Source: Candidatus Hydrogenedentota bacterium (GTDB taxonomy: Bacteria; Hydrogenedentota; Hydrogenedentia; Hydrogenedentales; SLHB01). Taken from it: 64,000 nt of DNA. A program made the position numbers and the translations under genes. The stretch spans positions 50,170 to 114,169 of the forward strand of contig BTWA01000018.1 of NCBI GenBank assembly GCA_045863295.1, given 5' to 3'. The notes beneath the pieces are model-generated. The model made no database searches, had not been told where the DNA came from, and worked only from the letters and a program-made list of their open reading frames with translations. Below are positions 50,130 to 64,000 of this stretch, one piece after another (positions within the stretch are counted from its first letter, which is position 1; the number at the start of each line of letters is the position of its first letter).

Positions 50130-50609
50130 ATGAACCAAACGGACATCATTGTGGAACTCGAGAGGTCGGGTGAATCCGTACTGAGGCAATACGACGCCCC
50201 GGAAATCGATCTCGCTAAGTCCTATGGCCCAGGGAAATGGTCCGTGCGCCAGATTCTTGCACACCTTGCCGATGACGAAGTCGTGTCGCTTTGGCGTGTG
50301 TGCAGAGCTGCCGCGGAGCCAGGCAGCCTCGTGCACGGATTCAACGAAAACGCATGGGCTGCGAAGCTGCACTACACGGAAAGGCCAATGCCCACCGCAA
50401 AGGTGTTATTCGCCGCGAACCGCGCGCAGATGATCGAATTCCTGCAACTCCTTTCACCAACCGTATTGGACCACACCATTCACCACTCCGAACGCGGTGA
50501 AATGACGCTGAAATCCTTCCTGGAGTCGGTGGTGTGGCACACGTGGCATCACCTCGAACAAATTGACGCGGCACGATCGGGCCGTATCTGGCCTCCCCAA
50601 GAGCCATGA
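50130..50609 (+). CDS. DinB/YfiT family protein
   Basis: YGPGKWSVRQILAHLAD, HSERG, WHTWHHLEQI. Confidence 0.88.
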   Translation: MNQTDIIVELERSGESVLRQYDAPEIDLAKSYGPGKWSVRQILAHLADDEVVSLWRVCRAAAEPGSLVHGFNENAWAAKLHYTERPMPTAKVLFAANRAQMIEFLQLLSPTVLDHTIHHSERGEMTLKSFLESVVWHTWHHLEQIDAARSGRIWPPQEP

Positions 50610-50625
50610 ATAGAAAGGGCACACC

Positions 50626-51099
50626 ATGACCAAGGCAGAAATCCTCAAGGGATTCGAAGACTCAAGAAAGGCCGTGCTCGATCAGTTCGACGCCCCCGAA
50701 GCCGATTGGAACAAGACCTACGGTGTGGGCAAGTGGACCGTTCGGCAAATACTCGCCCACCTCGCCGATGTCGAAGTCGTGTGCCTGTGGCGGTTTCTTC
50801 GCGGCGCGGCGGAGCCGGGCAGTCCGGTCGAAGCCTTTGACGAAAACAAGTGGGCCGCTTCGCTTGCCTATGAGAGCCGCTCGCTCGCTGTCGCGCGAAG
50901 CACGTTTGAAGCCAACCGGAACCAACTCCTCGAGCTCATTGCCGTCATGCCCGAATCGTCTCTCAACAACACCATACTTCATAGTGAATCCGGTGAACTC
51001 AAGCTGGATTTCTTTCTGGGGAAGATGATTAAACATGCGTTCCATCACGTCGATCAGATCAGAGCCGCCCGCGAAGGTCGCTCCTGGACGCCGGCATAG
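50626..51099 (+). CDS. DinB/YfiT family protein (tandem paralog)
   Basis: YGVGKWTVRQILAHLAD, HSESG, HAFHHVDQI. Confidence 0.88.
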   Translation: MTKAEILKGFEDSRKAVLDQFDAPEADWNKTYGVGKWTVRQILAHLADVEVVCLWRFLRGAAEPGSPVEAFDENKWAASLAYESRSLAVARSTFEANRNQLLELIAVMPESSLNNTILHSESGELKLDFFLGKMIKHAFHHVDQIRAAREGRSWTPA

Positions 51100-51550
51100 G
51101 CGGGCTTGACTCCATTCGGGCAGTCCATAGGTAACGATCCCGTGTCAGGAATGCGCGAAACGCTCACTTAAAGAACGGATTCTAAATGGCGAGCGCTTCG
51201 ATCGTTTCCCCATGCCGCAATTCCTCACTGTAGAGCAGCCTGCATCCGGCATCGAGTGCGGACGCCACAATGAGCGCGTCATGAATGCCATACCGTAGTC
51301 GTGCCTCTGCCCTGCGGCAAATCTCGACGTTGCCTTATGGCTTACCGTATTTAGATATTCCTGAACCCCGCGAAATCGGATACATGCTCCCTAGCCGAAT
51401 TGTGCGTGATCCGTGCCGGATTTCTCCTCGTCAAGCACCTCAAAGAGTTTTTCTTGGGATATCAGTTCAATGAATGCCCTGTTGCATTGAAGATAAGTTC
51501 ACGTGAACCGGCAACTTCCGAGTGCAATGACCCTAAATCCCCGAGGTCCG

Positions 51551-51575
51551 GTGCAACACACTTAACCTAATAAGT
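51551..51575 (+). promoter_or_regulatory. Conserved motif GTGCAACA-N10-AATARGT, copy 1 (upstream of portal)
   Basis: GTGCAACACACTTAACCTAATAAGT, ending 33 nt before the ATG. 20/25 identical to copy 2. Confidence 0.7.
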
Positions 51576-51608
51576 GAAGACATCGGCACTCAACGTGGGG
51601 AGAACACC

Positions 51609-52871
51609 ATGGCCCGCTGGTTCGACTGGAAGAGAAAAGAACGAAAACCCGTTTTCTCGCCCGTCGCGGAAACGTTCACCGAAAGCGAGTCCCGCTCACG
51701 AACCATTTCCTACGCCGAGGACGAGGCTGTCTGGCGCCAAAACATGGCCGGTCTGGTCCCTCTGCCCAATCAGACGCCCTTCTTCATGCTCCCTGTATAC
51801 CGCTTCCTTCGAGACTCTATCCCCGATATCTCGGACGCCGTATGGACATGGAAAAGGCTATGCCAAACCGGGTACGACATCGAAATCCTAAATGCCTCGT
51901 CCGATTTGGCGCACGAAAGGGCCGCGCGCCTGTTGCGCGACTTGGACAAGCGGGTCAACACCGGCGACCGGGGGATGGACGGCCTGTTGGACGTGTTCTA
52001 CACGTCACTGTTTACTTACGGCGCCGCGGCACTGGAGGTCGTGCTGTCGTCCAGCCGCGAGTCAATTCACGACGTGGTGCCTGTAGACGTGTGGACCGTC
52101 CGGTTCAAACGCGAAGAAGGCGTCCTGCAACCGTATCAGGTGCATGAAGGCGTGGAAATCCGTCTGCCCAAGGAACGATTTATCTATATCGGCCTCGATC
52201 GCGACGGCACCAACCCATACGGCCGCTCGATGCTCCGGTGCATTCCGTTCATGGTAAAGATACAACAGCGTTTGATCGAAGACATGGCCAAGGCCACCCG
52301 CAACGCGGGCTGGAGCAAGCTCCATGTGAGCTATACACCGGAAGAGCGCAACCGTGGCGAATCCGCCGAGGCGCATGAGAACCGGATCGCTCACAACTTC
52401 GCGGACCTCCGGGATAGGCTCCGCCGCATCGAGAGCGATCAGAATCTGGTCACCTACGACAACGTGGCGGTCAACCTCATTCGCGGCGATCAACACGCGC
52501 AAGTCTTTTACGACAATCACAAGGCCATCGAGGAACAGGTAATCACGGGCATGCACCTCATGCCCATCCTGCTGGGCAGGAACTACGGCACTACCGAAAC
52601 CTACGGCACCGCGCAATTTGAAATCATTAACCGCCAGGTGGAGGCCGTTAACCGAAGCGTCAAGCGCATCCTTGAGCGACTCTACAACTTCGAACTCGCC
52701 CTCATGTGGGGCGAAGCGGAAGCGCGGGTGAACATGCGCTCCAACCGCACCGTCGACGTGCTCAAGGAAGCGCAAGCACGAGGTCTGGAAATCGATAACG
52801 CCCTTCGACTGCGCGACGAAGGAGTTCTCAATCATGCCGGCGCTGCAAAACTCCTAGGCTTCGAAGTATAG
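51609..52871 (+). CDS. Phage-type portal protein
   Basis: 420 aa. LFTYGAAALEVV, NPYGRS, PILLG...TTETYG..Q pattern typical of portals. First gene of a head module. Confidence 0.8.
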   Translation: MARWFDWKRKERKPVFSPVAETFTESESRSRTISYAEDEAVWRQNMAGLVPLPNQTPFFMLPVYRFLRDSIPDISDAVWTWKRLCQTGYDIEILNASSDLAHERAARLLRDLDKRVNTGDRGMDGLLDVFYTSLFTYGAAALEVVLSSSRESIHDVVPVDVWTVRFKREEGVLQPYQVHEGVEIRLPKERFIYIGLDRDGTNPYGRSMLRCIPFMVKIQQRLIEDMAKATRNAGWSKLHVSYTPEERNRGESAEAHENRIAHNFADLRDRLRRIESDQNLVTYDNVAVNLIRGDQHAQVFYDNHKAIEEQVITGMHLMPILLGRNYGTTETYGTAQFEIINRQVEAVNRSVKRILERLYNFELALMWGEAEARVNMRSNRTVDVLKEAQARGLEIDNALRLRDEGVLNHAGAAKLLGFEV

Positions 52872-52914
52872 GACTCATGGGTCCCGCGGGACCCATCTCA
52901 CGGGAGATACATTC

Positions 52915-53598
52915 ATGGAACTGGCTCCATTCACGTTTCAACACGAAGGCCGTTTGGTCGGATTCCGGGCACAACCGGGAGACGAATCGGCCCTGGCTCA
53001 AGTCAATCGATTCGCGCTGCGCCCTCTGCTGGCCAGCGAAGTGGCCGTATTTACGCTCGACTTGTGCCACAACCAGATAGACCGGCACCACAGCCGGTTT
53101 CCCGAGGAAGAACTCGCGAAAATCAACGCACTCGTCGTGGGCCGGCCGCTTATGGAACGGCACGACCTGCGCGGCTCGTTGCCGCGCGGCACCTTCTTTC
53201 GCTCCGCTTTGAATCAATCCGGTGAACGAATTTCGGTGCGCCCCGATGTATATGTGCTCCGTACCCGGGACAACGAGGATTTCATTCTCAACATTGAAGG
53301 CGGCGTGTATCGGGAAACGTCCATTGGGTTTTCGTTTCGCACCCCCGAATGCTCGATCTGCAAAAAAGATCTTCGCACCTGCGACCACATTCCGGGCAGA
53401 ACCTACGGCGAGGCGGCATGCCACTACGTGATGCGCGACGTTTTGGATGTGATCGAGGGTTCCGTCGTGCCGTCCGGCTCCCAGGGCACGGGATTCGTGG
53501 CACAGGCGCGGTCGTTGCCCGCGGCCTTGAAGACCGCCCGGGAGCAATTCCACAAACCCGTGGAACTTTTCTCGCAACGCCTCTGGGCGGAGGAGTAA
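52915..53598 (+). CDS. Putative prohead maturation protease with Cys/His cluster
   Basis: IDRHHSRF, ERHD (His), ETSIGF (Ser), EGSVV...Q, as in HK97/herpes-fold proteases. Insert CSIC...CDH...C. Located between portal and capsid. Confidence 0.7.
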   Translation: MELAPFTFQHEGRLVGFRAQPGDESALAQVNRFALRPLLASEVAVFTLDLCHNQIDRHHSRFPEEELAKINALVVGRPLMERHDLRGSLPRGTFFRSALNQSGERISVRPDVYVLRTRDNEDFILNIEGGVYRETSIGFSFRTPECSICKKDLRTCDHIPGRTYGEAACHYVMRDVLDVIEGSVVPSGSQGTGFVAQARSLPAALKTAREQFHKPVELFSQRLWAEE

Positions 53599-53602
53599 CG
53601 AC

Positions 53603-53791
53603 ATGGAAGATCGTGAACGCTGCGCCTGTGGCGCCATTTATGACGTGAAAGTGGACAACCTCAAGGATGATCTGCGCGATCTGAAAGATCGAGTGCAACG
53701 CGTGGAAACAACCCTCGCGCGTGGAGTCATGCTGCTGGTGGCCAACCTCACCGGAATGGTGATCTCACTGGCACAGCAAGTGTTCGGCTGA
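53603..53791 (+). CDS. Small coiled-coil protein with C-terminal TM helix
   Basis: GGAGGAG RBS. Heptads VDNLKDDLRDLKDRVQRVE, then hydrophobic GVMLLVANLTGMVISLA. Confidence 0.7.
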   Translation: MEDRERCACGAIYDVKVDNLKDDLRDLKDRVQRVETTLARGVMLLVANLTGMVISLAQQVFG

Positions 53792-53864
53792 TCATTACCC
53801 TTATCGAATCCAACAAGTGCGCCCTATCCATGCCAAGACTCGAATCACAGGAGAACCGAAAACC

Positions 53865-54560
53865 ATGTTCTGGCAACTGACGCTCGATTCCGCCGAATCG
53901 CAAACTCACTCCAGCCCCCCGGACGGCCGCTACGTGCTGCACAGACACTGTGATGATCGCGGTCCCCATCTTGACCTGCGCCTCGAACAAAACGGGTACC
54001 TCACCGGCTGGCGTATCGAAGGAACGAAGTTGGAAGGATCCCCTTGGGCCATCGAGAAGCGCCCCCATCCACTTCGCTGGCTGGAACAGGACGGGAACGC
54101 AGAACGCCTCGATTGCGGCGAGTATGCCTGGCTCGAACAGAGCAACGATCGCCGCGTTGTGGTGATCCGGGGCCGGCATGGCTGTCGCGTAGTCCAGGCC
54201 GATCGCGCGCCCTCACTGCCACTGCACACAGTCCGGGCGGTGGTGGACATCCTCCGCGAATACAACGCTCCCATGGACGATGCCGCAAGGCTGATTCGAG
54301 ACGGCGTCACTGCCCGAAGTCGCGCCATCGCCCGCTTATGCGGGCTCGGACGGGAACTGGAAGGCGACCACTTCGACGAGGCGATATGGCGCAAGGCACT
54401 CAACGGACTGACCTTGGATGAAGTGCACCAGCAATTGCGCAGCTTCGAAAGACGCTTCGACACAGCCTTTCCCCCTACACCGGTTACGCGCCCCGAACGG
54501 CTCGATGCCGAATCCGTGGAACGGGTCGCCGGCGCCATGAGCATCGCAAGAAGCGTCTAG
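53865..54560 (+). CDS. LigD 3'-phosphoesterase-like domain fused to a helical scaffold-like region
   Basis: YVLHRH...HLDLRLE...GW...HPL...LDCGEY mirrors LigD PE FVVQKH...HYDFRLE...SW...HPLDY...WDRGTY. Charged helical C-half. AGGAGA RBS. Confidence 0.65.
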   Translation: MFWQLTLDSAESQTHSSPPDGRYVLHRHCDDRGPHLDLRLEQNGYLTGWRIEGTKLEGSPWAIEKRPHPLRWLEQDGNAERLDCGEYAWLEQSNDRRVVVIRGRHGCRVVQADRAPSLPLHTVRAVVDILREYNAPMDDAARLIRDGVTARSRAIARLCGLGRELEGDHFDEAIWRKALNGLTLDEVHQQLRSFERRFDTAFPPTPVTRPERLDAESVERVAGAMSIARSV

Positions 54561-54657
54561 TCTCGGTTGCCTCGCCAGGAATACGCGCCAAGTACATGTT
54601 CTCACACATCCGTATTCGGGAACTCTCAATCGGTCGGACGATCAGCATTGGCGTGTA

Positions 54658-54682
54658 GTGCAACAAACAGATCCCAATAAGT
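54658..54682 (+). promoter_or_regulatory. Conserved motif GTGCAACA-N10-AATARGT, copy 2 (upstream of decoration/capsid genes)
   Basis: GTGCAACAAACAGATCCCAATAAGT, ending 54 nt before the ATG. Confidence 0.7.
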
Positions 54683-54736
54683 AAGCAATGTCGACTACGC
54701 CACTCGGAAGTGTGGCATGCAAGAGGAGATTCAATC

Positions 54737-55117
54737 ATGGCATTTGGTGATATCGGCGGGGCGGTGACCGAACTGGTCATCACCTGCAAAACGCCGGCAA
54801 GCGGCACGGTAGCCATCGCGAAAGGCGACGCCGTAAAGCTCGACGGCGACTACCTCGTGGACAACGCAACGGACGCGGAAGACGCAGTTTTCGGCCAAGC
54901 CCTGGCCGCCTCGGAACGCAACGCGGAGGCAATTCCCGTGAAAGTGCGGGGCATCTGTGTGTTCGCCTACACGGGAACGGCTCCCACGGCAGACGGCGTG
55001 CAGGGCATCGTCGCGTCCGCTACAGACGGCAAGGTGAAAGCTCCCGCTTCCGGTAACGGACGCGGCATTAACGTGAAGGTGGACGCGGCGCAAACGCTTG
55101 TCCACGTTCTGCTGTAA
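54737..55117 (+). CDS. Putative head decoration/cement protein
   Basis: 126 aa, Gly/Ala/Val/Thr-rich beta-type (IAKGDAVKL, VFGQA, DGKVKA). GAGGAG RBS. Immediately precedes the capsid gene. Confidence 0.65.
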   Translation: MAFGDIGGAVTELVITCKTPASGTVAIAKGDAVKLDGDYLVDNATDAEDAVFGQALAASERNAEAIPVKVRGICVFAYTGTAPTADGVQGIVASATDGKVKAPASGNGRGINVKVDAAQTLVHVLL

Positions 55118-55131
55118 GGAGACAGCCCATC

Positions 55132-56178
55132 ATGACATTTCGAAACGATTGTATGAAAGAACGCGTGGCGTTTCTGAGCCGCGACCCCGAACAACTCCGG
55201 CAATCCCGCGGCCTCGAATTGTATGAGACGCTTGGCGCGCTGGGCCTGTCGCACCAGCAGTACTTCCGCGCGCTCGGCACCAACGCCGAGGATTATTGCG
55301 CGCAAGAGTTCGGCATCGACCTGCAACGCATCACCGTGGACAGGTTTTTCCAATCCGATCCCAACGCGAAGTGGCTCTTTCCGGACATCGTCCGCGAAGC
55401 GGTGCTCACCGGGATGAAGCGCAAGCCCGCCTACCCCGAACTCATCATCCGCGACGAAGCCATCGAAGGTACGGCCTACAACGTGCCGTACGTCGAAGAA
55501 TCCGAGGCGGAAGAGGAACTGCGTGGCGTGGCCGAAGGCGCTGCCATTCCCGAATCCGCCATTACCTATGGCGACCGCATCGTGCGCCTCGACAAGAAAG
55601 GCCGCGGCGTTATCGCGTCCTACGAAGTCATTCGCCGCATGTCCGTGGACATGTTGCGCGTCCATCTGATGCGCATGGGCGAGCGCCTCGGCAGGCACCT
55701 CGACGCGCGCCTGGCCACCGTGCTGGCCTCCGGCGACGGCTCCGGCAGCACCGCGCCAACCGTTCTCAATACGGCCACCGCCGCCACCTGGACCTATGCC
55801 GACATTCTCAAAGGCTTCATGAAGCTGTCGTTGGAAAAGTACTTCACGCCGACGCACATGATCGCCAACGCGGACCTGGCCCAGACCATTCTCAAAATGA
55901 GCGAATTCTCCGAAGCCGCTCTATTCGATTTCGCGAAAACGGGCAATCTGCCCACCCCGTTGGGCGTGAAGCTGGTGCCCATGGCCGATCAACCCGCAAA
56001 CAAACTCACCATTCTCGACGCGGGCCATGCCGTGCAGAAACTGACCGAGCAGGACCTGCTCGTCGAAAGCGACAAACTCATCCATCAGCAATGGGACCGC
56101 ACGTATCTGACGGTCGTGACCGACTTCGCGATCATCTACAACGATGCGCGCATCGTCGTGAACAGCGATTGGTCGTAA
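55132..56178 (+). CDS. Phage-type major capsid protein (HK97-fold-like)
   Basis: 348 aa. LFPDIV, VAEGAAIPES...VRLDKKGR...SYEVIRR (E-loop/P-domain pattern), spine helix LMRMGERLGRHLD. TAAGGAG RBS. Confidence 0.85.
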   Translation: MTFRNDCMKERVAFLSRDPEQLRQSRGLELYETLGALGLSHQQYFRALGTNAEDYCAQEFGIDLQRITVDRFFQSDPNAKWLFPDIVREAVLTGMKRKPAYPELIIRDEAIEGTAYNVPYVEESEAEEELRGVAEGAAIPESAITYGDRIVRLDKKGRGVIASYEVIRRMSVDMLRVHLMRMGERLGRHLDARLATVLASGDGSGSTAPTVLNTATAATWTYADILKGFMKLSLEKYFTPTHMIANADLAQTILKMSEFSEAALFDFAKTGNLPTPLGVKLVPMADQPANKLTILDAGHAVQKLTEQDLLVESDKLIHQQWDRTYLTVVTDFAIIYNDARIVVNSDWS

Positions 56179-56193
56179 ACAACGTTCCGGTTC

Positions 56194-56219
56194 GCGGGGC
56201 AGGCCTTGGCCTGCCCCGC
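56194..56219 (+). terminator. Perfect GC hairpin after capsid gene (no U-tract)
   Basis: GCGGGGCAGGCC-TT-GGCCTGCCCCGC. Confidence 0.55.
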
Positions 56220-56233
56220 TCCAAGGAGGCTCC

Positions 56234-56650
56234 ATGGCCGTATTCACCAACGAGACCGCGGTGCGAGTTAAGTTCCAACTCGCGGACACCACATTGGTAA
56301 CCCCTGCGCTTATCGAACAAAGCATCGAAGACGCCCACGCCGAAGTGCTTCGCTTTCTGGCTCCCGAAGTTGATACCGAGTCCCCGGAAGACGCGCTGGT
56401 CGTAGGCGAGACTCTGCTCGCCGGCGCCCATGTATACCGCTCCCTCGCCGCGCACGACGCCGCGAACCAGAAGCACATAGCGATCGGCGCCAACCGCATC
56501 GAGGCCGGCAAGCGTTTCGAGGCGTTGAATGCCATTGCCGAAGTTGTCGAACGTCAGGCCTGGTACATACTCGAGCCCTACGTGGCCCACATCCCCGCGC
56601 GCTCCGCCATTGCGTTAACGGAATCCACACCCGTGATGGGAGAAGCATGA
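56234..56650 (+). CDS. Putative head-tail adaptor/connector
   Basis: 138 aa helical. FTNETAVR...IEQSIEDAHAEV...ILEPYV pattern. Directly after the capsid gene. AAGGAGG RBS. Confidence 0.6.
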   Translation: MAVFTNETAVRVKFQLADTTLVTPALIEQSIEDAHAEVLRFLAPEVDTESPEDALVVGETLLAGAHVYRSLAAHDAANQKHIAIGANRIEAGKRFEALNAIAEVVERQAWYILEPYVAHIPARSAIALTESTPVMGEA

Positions 56651-56651
56651 C

Positions 56652-57338
56652 ATGGCCATCACGCTCGGCAACGTCACATTCGACCACGCGCATACGGCAG
56701 CCCTCGAATCGCACGACGAAGTCGGAGGCCGCGACGGCCGGCGCATTCGGATCTCGGGTCTCATTCTGGGGCAACCCTCGCTGACCGCCATACACGAACA
56801 ACTGGATGCGATTCTGGATGCCGCCTCCGCCGATGAATACAACGCAGCCCTCTCGCTGCGCCCAGGCCGCCGCATGTGGGTGCGGCGCGAGGAATTCGAA
56901 CGTGCCGTGGCCAACGACGCGCTTGTCGGCTCCTTTCAACTCGTGCTTGAGGCAAAGGACCCACACGAAGAATCGGTGGCCGAAATAGCATTGAACTGGA
57001 CGATTGACGCATCCGGAGACACCTTGAGCGTCACAGCCATGGGCAACGTGTTTTCGGAACCCCGGATAACACTCACCGCCGTGGGCGACCTCGTCAATCC
57101 CGCGCTATCGGACGGTACGCGCCAGATCGCCTATAGCGGCACTGCACTCGCCGGTTCGGTATTGGTCTTCGACGGACCAGCCAAGTCCGTTCGCCTGAAC
57201 GGCGACGACGTCACACCCTATGCCACAGGCGAATTCCCCACAATCGCTCCCGAAGGCACCGTATTGACATTTTTCGACGACACTGCAAGCGCGCACCAAG
57301 CCCAGGCCGTAGTCGCCTTCCGGGACCGGTGGTGGTGA
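56652..57338 (+). CDS. Distal-tail (Dit)-like protein
   Basis: FQLVLEAKDPH, GNVFSEPRITL, GSVLVFDG...VRLNG...GEFPTIAP, and a terminal FRDRWW, typical of siphophage Dit proteins. Confidence 0.65.
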   Translation: MAITLGNVTFDHAHTAALESHDEVGGRDGRRIRISGLILGQPSLTAIHEQLDAILDAASADEYNAALSLRPGRRMWVRREEFERAVANDALVGSFQLVLEAKDPHEESVAEIALNWTIDASGDTLSVTAMGNVFSEPRITLTAVGDLVNPALSDGTRQIAYSGTALAGSVLVFDGPAKSVRLNGDDVTPYATGEFPTIAPEGTVLTFFDDTASAHQAQAVVAFRDRWW

Positions 57339-57340
57339 CC

Positions 57341-59080
57341 ATGCAATACCGAATCGAAATTTGGGATATCTGGAATCGCCGTATCGCTTCCCTCGAAGAC
57401 GTACCGCTTGTAGAAGCCACCCGAACGCTGCCCGGCAAGGCCGACACAATCCGCGGCGTGCTCCCCGATTCCCTGACGCAACTGGGGCACGGATACCGCG
57501 TGAAAGTCATTGTGGACGGCCAGCTCTTCTGCGAAGGTGTTGTGGACTCGGTGGAGCCGGGCTGGGGCGACACACGAAAACTCATCCTCGATCAATACGT
57601 GCCCTTTCACAAGGTCATCGCATTCGAGGCAAAGTCCGAACCCCGCCCGGGCAACTCCCGCATTGCGATGGCATTTGAAAACCGCCCTGTTCACGAAATG
57701 GTGAGGGCCATAGTCAACGCCGCGCCCGGAGCGATTCACTACACCGTGGCTCATCAGGCCTATCCCGATGGCGCGGTCCGCGAATTCGCGAAATTCGAAT
57801 CGCGCAAATCACCGGAAAACGAATTGGGCGTCGGCTCAATCGACACCGGCCAATGGGTAGGTTCAGGCCGAATGGACCTGTCGGCTGCATTCGCCAAAGA
57901 CGGCGACACGATCGCAGGCATTGTCGTCGACGGCGCTCCATGGCCCGATCTCCGGTTGATGCTGATCGATTGCGAAGAAACAAGCCTGAACAGCCATGCC
58001 GTAAGCAGACACCCCGAAACCGAATTCTGGACATCCGGCGAGTACAACGCGAGCGGATACAAATACAAAGCCGACGCCGCAAAGGCAGCCCTGCAGGACC
58101 TCATCAACACGAACGGAATCGACTATATCGAACTGAATCCACATCGCGACACCGAGGGAAATTTCGACGATCGCATCGACGCATTCGGACGCTACATCGG
58201 CCTTGTATACGGCGGCGGACAATGCCTGAATGCGGCTATGGTCGAGCTGGGCCATGCCGACGTGTACCTCTACCAGGATGGCAAGTTTCACGTGCCCGAA
58301 ATGGCGCTCAAGGATTTCTACTCCTACGCCGCACCGGCTCAAGACTCCGTGGAGGAAACCTCCGCCTCCCTCGTAAGCTACGACATCGCAGCCGGTGCAT
58401 TGGAAGCATTGACGGCGCTGGCCTACGCCGCCGGCGGATACATCTGGTCCGTGGGGCTGGACCTGGCCGTAACCTTCCGGAAGGCAACCGTCGCGGATAC
58501 CGTGGTTCACTTTGACCCCGTAGAGATGAGCGTAACGCTCGGCTCCGGCGATAGCGGCGTTGTAAACGCCGTCTTCTTCGAAGGAAATCCCGTGAATGCC
58601 CCGCTCGCAAAAACCTACGTGCGCAGCGCCAGCGTAAACGCGCTGGGATTCCGAAGCCGCTCACTGGAGTACGGCGCACTGCGCGTCGAAGCAGACGCCG
58701 ACCAACTCGTCTCCGGCATATTGGACGACACCGCATACCCGGTCGTAACCGGCGAAGTCTCGTTCCATCACGGCCATCCCGGTATCCACGCCGGCGATCT
58801 GATGGCCTTTCGCGGCGAACCGTTTCGCAGGCTGAGCCCCGCTCTCGACCACGAATGGAACAACGCATTCCCCGGCACATTAATCGCCCGCGCCGCGGAA
58901 GTCCGCCACAGGTTCTCCGGCCGCGTCGTAAACACGCGCGTGTTCCTGACATCCCCGTTGCGCTCCGTGAACGCGCCCATTGAATTCATGGTCCGCACGC
59001 AACCGCCGCTCGCCACCTTTTTTGAATTCCGTCTCGACAACGCCGTGGTCGGCCTGGACATGGGCTACCACCTGGACTGA
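57341..59080 (+). CDS. Baseplate hub/Tal-like protein
   Basis: Follows Dit. N-terminal IEIWD...RIASL, LFCEGVV; ALEALTALA...WSV; VVNAVFFEG; IHAGDLM, as in hub folds. Confidence 0.55.
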   Translation: MQYRIEIWDIWNRRIASLEDVPLVEATRTLPGKADTIRGVLPDSLTQLGHGYRVKVIVDGQLFCEGVVDSVEPGWGDTRKLILDQYVPFHKVIAFEAKSEPRPGNSRIAMAFENRPVHEMVRAIVNAAPGAIHYTVAHQAYPDGAVREFAKFESRKSPENELGVGSIDTGQWVGSGRMDLSAAFAKDGDTIAGIVVDGAPWPDLRLMLIDCEETSLNSHAVSRHPETEFWTSGEYNASGYKYKADAAKAALQDLINTNGIDYIELNPHRDTEGNFDDRIDAFGRYIGLVYGGGQCLNAAMVELGHADVYLYQDGKFHVPEMALKDFYSYAAPAQDSVEETSASLVSYDIAAGALEALTALAYAAGGYIWSVGLDLAVTFRKATVADTVVHFDPVEMSVTLGSGDSGVVNAVFFEGNPVNAPLAKTYVRSASVNALGFRSRSLEYGALRVEADADQLVSGILDDTAYPVVTGEVSFHHGHPGIHAGDLMAFRGEPFRRLSPALDHEWNNAFPGTLIARAAEVRHRFSGRVVNTRVFLTSPLRSVNAPIEFMVRTQPPLATFFEFRLDNAVVGLDMGYHLD

Positions 59081-59088
59081 GGAAAATC

Positions 59089-59610
59089 ATGGCTATCAAA
59101 GGACAGGGATACGTAAAAACCACATGGGCCTTCGAAGAACGCCCCGTGGCGTCTTCCAAACTGAACACATGGGACGACCGAATCGAAGCCGCCCTGGAAC
59201 TCGCATTCCATCTGTTGAATCACGCATGGGGCGGAGATTCCGGCGTGCTGCGCAACGCAACAGCGGACGACCTGCGAGTCCACGCGACCACCCCGGAAAG
59301 CGTCCGCGTGCGAGTAGAACCCGGATACGCCTTCATTTCGAAATGCCCATTCCGGATGACCGGACCCGCCGAAACCGGCGATCTCGCCCCGCCCGCGGCC
59401 CAACCCCGGATCGATCTCGTTCAAGCGAGGCTCGACACCTGGTCCGTCCAAGTGCTCACCGGCGTCGAATCCGCCACCCCGTCTCCGCCTGTCGCGGGCA
59501 CGGACTGCATCGCACTCGCGCAAATCTACCTGCGCCCCGGAATGACCACCATCAAAGACGCCGACGACAGCGTCAACGGATACATCACCGATGTCAGAAC
59601 ATTCTTATAA
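59089..59610 (+). CDS. Baseplate/fibre-associated minor structural protein
   Basis: LRVHAT...VRVEPGYAFI, PRIDLVQARLD, IALAQIY, ITDVR pattern of phage minor tail proteins. Confidence 0.55.
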   Translation: MAIKGQGYVKTTWAFEERPVASSKLNTWDDRIEAALELAFHLLNHAWGGDSGVLRNATADDLRVHATTPESVRVRVEPGYAFISKCPFRMTGPAETGDLAPPAAQPRIDLVQARLDTWSVQVLTGVESATPSPPVAGTDCIALAQIYLRPGMTTIKDADDSVNGYITDVRTFL

Positions 59611-60058
59611 CGGACGAAACGACCTCCGCCTCGTCGCCGAGGTCGACGGCGAAAAACTCACCCACTTCCGGTTGAAAGAATTCGAAAACCGCCAAGGCCT
59701 CGCCATGGTCCATCGCACCGCTTTGGAATCCCTCGAAAGGGTCCGCCGTGAACTGCGCGCCATGGCCGGCGAAGACGTATGGATCATCGTCACCGACGCC
59801 GTCCGCACCCCCGAAGACCTGGACCGCCTCGCCGAGCGGCTCGGCTGGGCCGATCAAGGCGGGCTCGTCTCCCGCCGCTCCAAACACCTCGCCGAATTCG
59901 GCGGCATCGCCGTCGATATCGTCGCCGTGATCGCAAGCAACCGCGCCCGAGTCCCCCAGAAGACCCTCGGAAACGTGTGCCGATCCCATTTCGATTTCGT
60001 GAAAGACGACTACAAAGACGGTCACGTACACGCGGACAACCGCGAACGCGGCCGATGA
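59591..60058 (+). CDS. Peptidase M15-like endolysin
   Basis: HFRLKEF, LERVR, VTDAVRT, SKH...GIAVDI, HVHAD give the M15/LAS zinc ligands H-x-D...HxH. Confidence 0.75.
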   Translation: MSEHSYNGRNDLRLVAEVDGEKLTHFRLKEFENRQGLAMVHRTALESLERVRRELRAMAGEDVWIIVTDAVRTPEDLDRLAERLGWADQGGLVSRRSKHLAEFGGIAVDIVAVIASNRARVPQKTLGNVCRSHFDFVKDDYKDGHVHADNRERGR

Positions 60059-60082
60059 ACAATACCCAAAGGGAGTGAAAAT

Positions 60083-60442
60083 ATGGACTGGATAAACAAC
60101 GAAGCAGGCCTCGTCATGCTCAGCACCATCATCAGCGGACTATGGGCCTTCTTCAAATCGCAGGAATGGCTCCGGCTCGCAAAAGAACACAAGGGAGAAA
60201 AGGCGCTCCTGGCACTCGAAGCCGGCGTGCACCACGCCTACGAAGAATACGTGCGCGCCATCAAAGCCGCAAGAACCGACGGCAAACTCACCCCCGAAGA
60301 ACGCCGCCGCGCACGCGATCTCGCCGTGCATGCCGCCGTCGAATTCGGCCGAAATGAAGGCGTCGATGTCATGACAGAACTCGGCGTCTCCTACATCGAC
60401 GCCTGGCTTAAACGCCTCCTCCAACAAATAAAAACACACTGA
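60083..60442 (+). CDS. Putative holin-like membrane protein
   Basis: Single N-terminal TM, then AGVHHAYEEYV...GKLTPEE...IDAWL (LL-H-holin-like layout). Adjacent to the endolysin. GGGAG RBS. Confidence 0.55.
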   Translation: MDWINNEAGLVMLSTIISGLWAFFKSQEWLRLAKEHKGEKALLALEAGVHHAYEEYVRAIKAARTDGKLTPEERRRARDLAVHAAVEFGRNEGVDVMTELGVSYIDAWLKRLLQQIKTH

Positions 60443-63832: not shown

Positions 63833-63857
63833 GTGCAACAACTTTGCCTAAATAGGT
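63833..63857 (+). promoter_or_regulatory. Conserved motif GTGCAACA-N10-AATARGT, copy 3 (upstream of host ORF at 63904)
   Basis: GTGCAACAACTTTGCCTAAATAGGT, ending 46 nt before the ATG. Confidence 0.6.
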
Positions 63858-63903: not shown

Positions 63904-64000
63904 ATGCGAAGAAATTGGGTTTATCTGTTCGTAATTCTGTTAATTGCACTCCTTGGTTTGGGTGTAGCGCCCCGTTACCTGGAGAATCTCAAGGTGGGGG
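63904..64000 (+). CDS. Start of an exported/membrane protein (3'-truncated by window edge)
   Basis: GAGGTG RBS. MRRNWVYLFVILLIALLGLGVAPRY... signal-anchor-like, open to the window end. Confidence 0.6.
   Translation, partial: MRRNWVYLFVILLIALLGLGVAPRYLENLKVG

Follow-up and report, generated by a model that had tools for sequence, protein, structure and literature searches.

A domesticated phage gene set of Candidatus Hydrogenedentota that may place a capsid directly on a siphophage tail tip

How can a virion be built from genes for a head, a neck adaptor and a tail tip, with no tail tube between them and no terminase in front? The question is raised by the DNA analyzed here, a window of 64,000 nucleotides (64 kb) that corresponds to positions 50170-114169 of contig C18 in G000, the source genome, a 96% complete draft of a Candidatus Hydrogenedentota bacterium in 88 contigs. 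Within it, 12 co-oriented genes at 51609-60442, flanked by two DinB-family genes and an opposite-strand open reading frame (ORF), form a cluster of phage-type genes. On balance, we think it probable that this element encodes a siphophage-derived, chromosomally domesticated particle resembling gene transfer agents (GTAs), in which the tail tube module has been lost and the distal tail protein Dit sits directly on the adaptor. The head, neck and tip genes concerned are as follows, by window coordinates.

51609..52871, + strand: portal, 420 aa (PHROG3753, E 7e-49; Portal_Mu, E 5e-8)
54737..55117, + strand: head decoration protein, 126 aa (PHROG4588, E 5e-10)
55132..56178, + strand: major capsid protein (MCP), 348 aa (PHROG3922, E 4e-51; PF25209)
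56234..56650, + strand: head-tail adaptor, gp6 type, 138 aa (predicted structure and fold search)
56652..57338, + strand: distal tail protein Dit, SPP1 gp19.1 type, 228 aa (SPP1_Dit of Pfam, E 8.5e-6; PHROG33, E 6e-9)
57341..59080, + strand: baseplate hub of the gp27/gp44/Tal fold with an inserted staphylococcal-nuclease (SNase) domain, 579 aa (model pLDDT 90.5; Foldseek)

The junction between the adaptor and Dit genes

The adaptor was assigned from a structure model (pLDDT 85.7) that resembles the gp6-type neck adaptors of Mu and HK97 (Z 9.7, rmsd 2.8, 93 aligned). This Z score is moderate alone for a helical bundle; all 13 of the top 13 rows of the fold search are phage neck or tail entries. 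Dit also matches PDB entry 2x8k, "protein 19.1" (E 1.8e-6). The adaptor TGA ends at 56650 and is followed by a single C and then by the ATG of Dit at 56652. The two genes are neighbors in all 51 loci that hold both, with a median gap of about 3 nt and a maximum of 444 nt, and no gene-like plus-strand ORF was found in the two widest gaps. The first-pass annotation of this DNA had described the stopper, tube and tape measure as cleanly absent between the two genes, and the adjacency bears this out.

Nine families of stopper, terminator, tube and tape-measure proteins (phrog_476, PF10145, phrog_21417, phrog_793, phrog_19754, PF06199, PF05521, PF11367 and PF04630) had no match in the source genome. 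Three of them were searched over 41 to 61 genomes and six over 5 genomes, including two single-contig ones; the six-family search returned one marginal match only (E 0.048). Matches to phrog_476 in 14 of 61 genomes were rejected, as they cover only positions 223-295 of the 296 in the profile. Tape-measure matches above the Pfam cut-off occur in 14/61 genomes and are patchy, several lying about 20 to 25 kb from prophage terminases. Bacillus phage CUBc25 and Enterococcus phage fHoEfm07 are the nearest cultured phages; phmmer gave no match for any of 12 proteins from their necks and tails, and their Dit, used as a control, failed too. Behind the top 60 sites of a promoter-like motif, described below, no tail-like ORF was seen by eye. 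The genome-wide profile searches that the first-pass annotation had called for uncovered no stopper, terminator, tube or tape-measure gene that is co-conserved, and within the reach of such profiles the tube-less reading stands. The gap looks like a true loss of the tail module.

The sequence at 56652-57338 matches Dit families with a C-terminal domain rather than tube families. The same fit, together with the lack of a length ruler, stands against a related proposal, in which Dit would stack into a short multi-ring tube of loosely controlled length between adaptor and hub. Dit does have the tube fold, according to the accessible part of PMC7296036, and no other tube gene was found; even so, we regard such stacking as quite improbable.

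A second, sister element provides another view of the junction. A profile of the hub identified a family of hubs of about 365 aa without the nuclease insert. At one of their loci, L201, the gene order is portal, a 235-aa ORF, decoration protein, MCP, adaptor, Dit, protease, fiber anchor, fiber, a 104-aa protein, lysin, two small ORFs, hub, a small HTH gene and the large terminase (TerL; phrog_38, E 4e-67), all in one cluster among host genes. The adaptor stop lies 2 nt before Dit. No tape-measure-sized ORF and no recognizable tube, stopper or terminator were found in this cluster, although terminase and lysis genes lie inside it. The lack of a recognizable tube despite the presence of the terminase supports tail loss more strongly than the family searches do. 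Locus L199 repeats the adaptor-Dit adjacency, and at L198 the hub is followed by TerL. The capsid proteins of this sister element bear the NCBI name "Ca. Omnitrophica bacterium"; 80 of the 120 clusters listed are 52-99% identical, some on contigs of up to 1.8 Mb. The 235-aa ORF of L201 had no PHROG, NCBIfam or Atlas match, and its assignment as a phosphoesterase was rejected for want of a match to the alignment of that family. Separately, a 612-aa protein, P0146, is distantly related to the hub over its full length, insert included (E 8e-70), and may mark a third lineage; it had no relatives in the metagenome contigs searched.

The gap before the portal gene

Between the stop of the upstream DinB-family gene (51099) and the portal start (51609) lie 509 nt that hold no stop-free stretch longer than 81 aa in any of six frames. 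This interval has no match to the profile of the element's own TerL, and no meaningful one to a small-terminase-like (TerS-like) profile (best E 0.19, 0.6 bits). The first-pass annotation had reported no terminase-sized ORF or remnant here, which these checks confirm, and had offered two explanations: genes at separate loci, or a tube-less head docked on a baseplate, possibly with protein or non-terminase-packaged cargo. For the terminase the former proved right. The pre-portal gap is a split, with a co-conserved TerL encoded at another chromosomal site (G000:C2:99473-101134; phrog_2, E 9e-24), directly downstream of a copy of the promoter-like motif.

Orthologues of this TerL are near full length in 47 of 61 genomes (62-71% identity), partial or weaker in 9 and missing from 5. 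Walker A/B-type, coupling and nuclease motifs are kept in at least 95% of 30 sequences, and in 22 of 30 loci TerL is preceded by a conserved gene of some 160 aa whose position is like that of TerS. In four genomes TerL lies near the main cluster: upstream of the portal by 1.4 kb in G017 and by 2 kb in G047, downstream of the holin-like gene by 1.1 kb in G057, and at a distance of 8 kb in G034. It shares the strand of the cluster in the three genomes at 1.1-2 kb. Because TerL is intact and co-conserved, non-terminase cargo is not supported, with the possible exception of family f4 (TerL in 0 of 2 genomes).

The lone TerL genes on contigs C2 and C23 were located via prophage TerL homologues of relatives. 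The C23 gene (G000:C23:22329-23816) is a paralogue 61% identical to that on C2; it lies among host genes and has a motif copy of its own. The sole Pfam terminase match in G000 was rejected as the cognate motor, since it belongs to an unrelated prophage (G000:C15:94000-125000) with its own TerL, portal and capsid. HGGxSTG-domain genes occur in several copies in G000 (C1:48733-49740, C10:102464-103450, C20:94165-95175, C23:16712-18289 and C26:498-1439), several of them right behind the motif. In G011 (L195) a member of this family forms a fusion with a TerL paralogue, and in G005 (L194) one lies 5' of such a paralogue. The family may represent an alternative small terminase; present in only 17 of 61 genomes, it was rejected as a core component. 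At L132 (G058:C66, 8203-10917), a second adaptor homologue lies beside a divergent TerL paralogue, away from the complete main cluster of G058.

The motif, GTGCAACA-N10-AATARGT, occurs three times in the window, where 0.10 copies are expected:

51551..51575, + strand: promoter-like motif before the portal operon (motif scan; TGCAAC counts across loci)
54658..54682, + strand: second copy, 5' of the decoration gene and MCP (motif scan)
63833..63857, + strand: third copy, 5' of an accessory fiber gene (motif scan)

The sequence TGCAAC precedes the portal at 20 of 45 loci and the decoration gene at 15 of 61 (background 0.075 per window). For terS/terL, RTGCAACR is found upstream at 11 of 27 loci when the coding strand is read and at 1 of 27 when the reverse strand is. 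An association of the motif with TerL, which the first-pass annotation had suggested looking for, was found: the motif lies directly 5' of the C2 TerL and is conserved in position, but it is not specific to the element. It also precedes many unrelated host genes and so probably acts as a promoter element in a regulon that extends beyond the cluster.

TerL and a fiber gene did leave the cluster, and the stopper, terminator, tube and tape measure might likewise lie at another locus, too divergent for profiles to detect; the element would then be an ordinary multi-locus GTA. Pfam terminase searches missed the C2 TerL, a real gene, so the tail-family negatives are of limited sensitivity, and G000 is an incomplete draft. 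The evidence on the other side comprises the nine tail families without a match in G000, the top 60 motif sites with no tail-like ORF behind them, the unmatched 12 phage proteins (with the caveat of their failed Dit control) and the sister cluster, which has terminase and lysis genes and no tape-measure-sized ORF. We consider a hidden tail locus unlikely.

Distribution, selection and nested losses

Of 61 genomes of the same order, 54 carry the MCP gene, each at a single locus, with 58-80% identity. A scan of species genomes returned 68 loci, mostly titled Ca. Hydrogenedentota; the element is single copy and phylum-wide. Its gene order is fixed across Hydrogenedentota, and the flanking host genes vary. 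In nine locus pairs and 11 genes, dN/dS ranges from 0.02 to 0.33, with most values under 0.3 and one decoration pair as the sole exception (0.61), and the cluster genes are under purifying selection. No conserved replication or integration family recurs in the cluster or in its flanks, which consist of variable host genes, and no relative of the element was found in the viral contigs searched. Conservation, fixed order amid variable host genes and dN/dS together indicate that this is a domesticated phage gene set fixed in the chromosome, not a decaying prophage. At one locus (L067, 11044-12592), a 370-aa ORF that by eye resembles a transposase separates the MCP gene from the adaptor gene, and the portal is followed by a second copy of the decoration gene.

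Some lineages have lost parts of the cluster. Among 50 informative Hydrogenedentota loci, 40 hold adaptor, Dit and hub, 3 hold Dit without hub, 1 has the adaptor only, and neck and tip genes are missing altogether from 6. In whole-genome searches, G046 and G054 kept adaptor and Dit without hub, and G048, G055 and G039 were without all three. Dit is kept with the adaptor when the hub is lost and so appears to travel with it, as would be expected of a protein in the role of stopper. TerL was not detectable in G039 and G050. In G039, whose genome is 95% complete, the f4 locus (L225, on C76) runs from portal to MCP, followed by a lysin and a holin-like gene, and no adaptor, Dit, hub or TerL was detected. 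Family f4 is the sole lineage in which a terminase-free capsid is possible.

The existence of head-only lineages invites comparison with phage-inducible chromosomal islands that form capsids (cf-PICIs; 10.1101/2025.02.11.637232, here and below as far as its accessible part describes them), which make DNA-filled heads without a tail tube of their own; for the present element, DNA filling is only proposed. Tail-less heads might use neck and tube parts of co-resident phages; in keeping with this, 14 of the 61 genomes hold tape-measure genes above the Pfam cut-off, and prophage terminases lie beside several of these genes. However, cf-PICIs are mobile elements that carry an integrase, a replication module and an adaptor plus connector but neither lysis genes nor a tail tip, and are defined the other way round. 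The present element is chromosomally fixed, encodes its own Dit and hub, no connector, and lysis-type genes, and has no integrase or replication module in its cluster; it does not show the defining features of cf-PICIs. We therefore hold tail borrowing to be very improbable.

Enzyme domains and the proposed particle

The other features of the cluster and its surroundings are:

52915..53598, + strand: prohead protease-like protein, 227 aa (PHROG16951; H83, S136, E181 and a Cys/His cluster)
53603..53791, + strand: 62-aa protein with a hydrophobic C-terminal stretch, possibly a lysis accessory (conserved in the cluster; hydropathy 1.75, residues 38-56)
53865..54560, + strand: LigD-type 3'-phosphoesterase domain fused to a scaffold-like C terminus, 231 aa (PDB 3p43, E 1.5e-8)
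59089..59610, + strand: 173-aa virion structural protein, probably a fiber anchor (weak PHROG structural matches; Atlas phage neighbors, TM 0.7-0.75)
59591..60058, + strand: endolysin-like peptidase, 155 aa (PHROG894, E 0.0016)
60083..60442, + strand: holin-like protein, 119 aa (position as conserved last gene; hydrophobic N terminus, hydropathy 1.42)
63904..64000, + strand: start of an accessory fiber-like gene with a signal-like leader, which ends at the contig edge (family profile, E 1.6e-11)

H83, S136 and E181 of the protease-like protein, which we take to be its triad, are invariant in 51 of 51 sequences, and its profile matches the head maturation protease of fHoEfm07 (E 3e-15). The endolysin-like peptidase is present in 24 of 50 loci. 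The holin-like protein, named for its position and hydrophobic N terminus, had no family match in profile searches. The C15 prophage holds a homologue of the 173-aa protein. At 15 loci the cluster contains or adjoins a member of the accessory fiber family, and G000 has further homologues on C2 near 148000 and in the C15 prophage; the signal-peptide-like leader of the family is odd for a virion fiber. Directly 5' of the cluster, two tandem DinB_2-family paralogues (window 50130-51099) are not conserved neighbors in relatives.

Two proteins of the cluster carry added enzyme domains. The insert in the hub, at about residues 180-335, has the SNase fold and a catalytic-type Asp/Arg/Glu set, and its activity is predicted. 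Foldseek matched the model to hubs (E 1e-11) and to SNase (E 6e-7), and a fold search against viral models returned generic hubs. Residues D187, T190, R205, D210, D280 and R284, presumably with catalytic roles, are present in 42 of 42 sequences, D189 in 39 and E213 in 40. The 231-aa protein scores below the Pfam and NCBIfam cut-offs and carries a LigD-type His/His/Asp set, which we assume to be metal ligands, with conserved Arg and His; here too activity is predicted. H28 and H35 are found in 55 of 56 sequences, and D37, R39 and H68 in 56 of 56. Its C terminus is weakly like the tail of the CUBc25 protease-scaffold protein (E 0.005, probability 7%). SNase leaves 3'-phosphates, and LigD phosphoesterases remove them. 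The phosphoesterase is kept in lineages without hub, so the two are not strictly coupled. Our best guess for the hub nuclease is that it most likely removes DNA outside the cell in the vicinity of target cells; the phosphoesterase may, as a guess, heal 3'-phosphate ends.

The nuclease could also point to a particle that does not serve gene transfer, such as a nuclease-tipped or decoy capsid acting in biofilm remodeling, antagonism, phage decoy or DNA storage, its packaging being put to a different use. The preserved catalytic-type residues of the hub, the missing tape measure and the persistence of head-only lineages, one without detectable TerL, would fit this. The intact TerL of 47 of 61 genomes argues against it, as does the sister hub, whose lack of the nuclease domain indicates that the nuclease is an add-on, not the core purpose. 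We find a non-transfer role doubtful.

For the GTA-like particle that we prefer, assembly could proceed as follows. Portal, capsid, decoration protein, protease and the scaffold-phosphoesterase fusion would form a procapsid, which the separately encoded TerS and TerL would fill with DNA, probably that of the host, because no replication or integration genes travel with the element. The adaptor ring would sit on the portal, and a Dit hexamer would take the place of the stopper, whose fold it would share. A hub trimer would cap the Dit ring and retain the DNA, with fibers attached, and the holin-like and endolysin-like genes would release the particles. The outcome would be a stubby, podovirus-looking particle made of siphophage tip parts. 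In RcGTA, the Rhodobacter capsulatus GTA, stopper, terminator, tube and Dit have a common fold and adaptor loops bind the stopper ring (PMC7296036, accessible part), which makes a swap of Dit for stopper structurally plausible. A complex model of four adaptors and two Dit N-domains scored 0.02, gave no verdict and was not used as evidence.

Several observations weigh against this reading. Absence of the tail rests on profile searches able to miss divergent genes, as Pfam missed the conserved TerL, and the positive-control genome was matched for seven of the nine tail families, with none for two PHROG families. Among the unassigned ORFs of L201, the 235-aa one is tube-sized, so a hidden tube is possible there. 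Families f13 and f4 (three genomes tested) are without adaptor, Dit and hub, which means that the tip is dispensable in some lineages. The TerS-like gene of G000 is reduced to a C-terminal piece in frame with TerL, and G015 holds only a TerL fragment. Over 19 genomes, the correlation between MCP and TerL distances is only weak (rho 0.22, Mantel p 0.10), with four well-supported pairs recurring in both trees. If the tape measure is missing, no conduit through the recipient envelope is apparent, and an active nuclease at the exit would be awkward for DNA delivery.

The element shares several hallmarks of GTAs, namely fixed caudoviricete-derived head and packaging genes, purifying selection, no replication or integration module, and an intact terminase (with the TerS-like gene truncated in G000). 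As in RcGTA-type GTAs of Alphaproteobacteria (PMC7296036 and PMC9662315, accessible parts), a host-fixed structural cluster is under purifying selection and genes lie at more than one locus; as in RcGTA, portal, HK97-type capsid, adaptor, Dit and hub are encoded in a cluster without replication genes. Unlike the element, in which none were found, RcGTA has a stopper, a terminator, five tube rings and a tape measure. The element further differs in that its terminase lies outside the main cluster, its hub has a nuclease domain and the closest relatives of its head genes are those of siphophages of Bacillus and Enterococcus; moreover, its DNA transfer is only proposed. Tail-less or short-tailed particles have been reported for the Bartonella GTA in one species, with the morphology disputed in the same source (PMC9662315, accessible part), and the likeness is one of description only. 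The nearest cultured phages, the siphophages CUBc25 and fHoEfm07, are about 25-30% identical. They share homologous portal (27-30%), protease and MCP, CUBc25 has a decoration homologue, and the fHoEfm07 TerL belongs to phrog_2, as does the detached C2 TerL. In these phages, unlike in the element, TerL precedes the portal, adaptor and Dit are separated by a block that runs from stopper to tape measure, and replication or lysogeny genes are present.

Three tail types are recognized among tailed phages and GTAs. We place the element among domesticated GTA-like elements, and there is a real chance that its virion architecture is new. The fuller claim, of a fourth tailed-virion architecture with the capsid straight on a siphophage tip, domesticated in at least two uncultured lineages and joined in Hydrogenedentota by a nuclease at the tip and, inside, an enzyme that heals DNA ends, we put a little short of an even chance. 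The literature listings and abstract openings covered, which take in few subscription papers, gave no description of the element. In the accessible version of the phylum-wide genomics paper (PMC11406978), the main text contains none of the words phage, capsid or virus, and the phylum had no cultured isolate as of that paper. The sister element, the series of nested losses and both enzyme domains are new in this analysis.

If the reading is true, a neck set on a siphophage tip would be a different solution to virion construction, one that tests stopper, tube and Dit as interchangeable rings of one ancestral fold, and it would add a phylum-wide GTA candidate beyond the few known lineages. The nested losses, of the hub, then of adaptor and Dit, then of the terminase, form a natural deletion series showing which parts the host needs. 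As about 14 genes could be expressed in a laboratory host, the architecture would be testable even though the phylum is uncultured.

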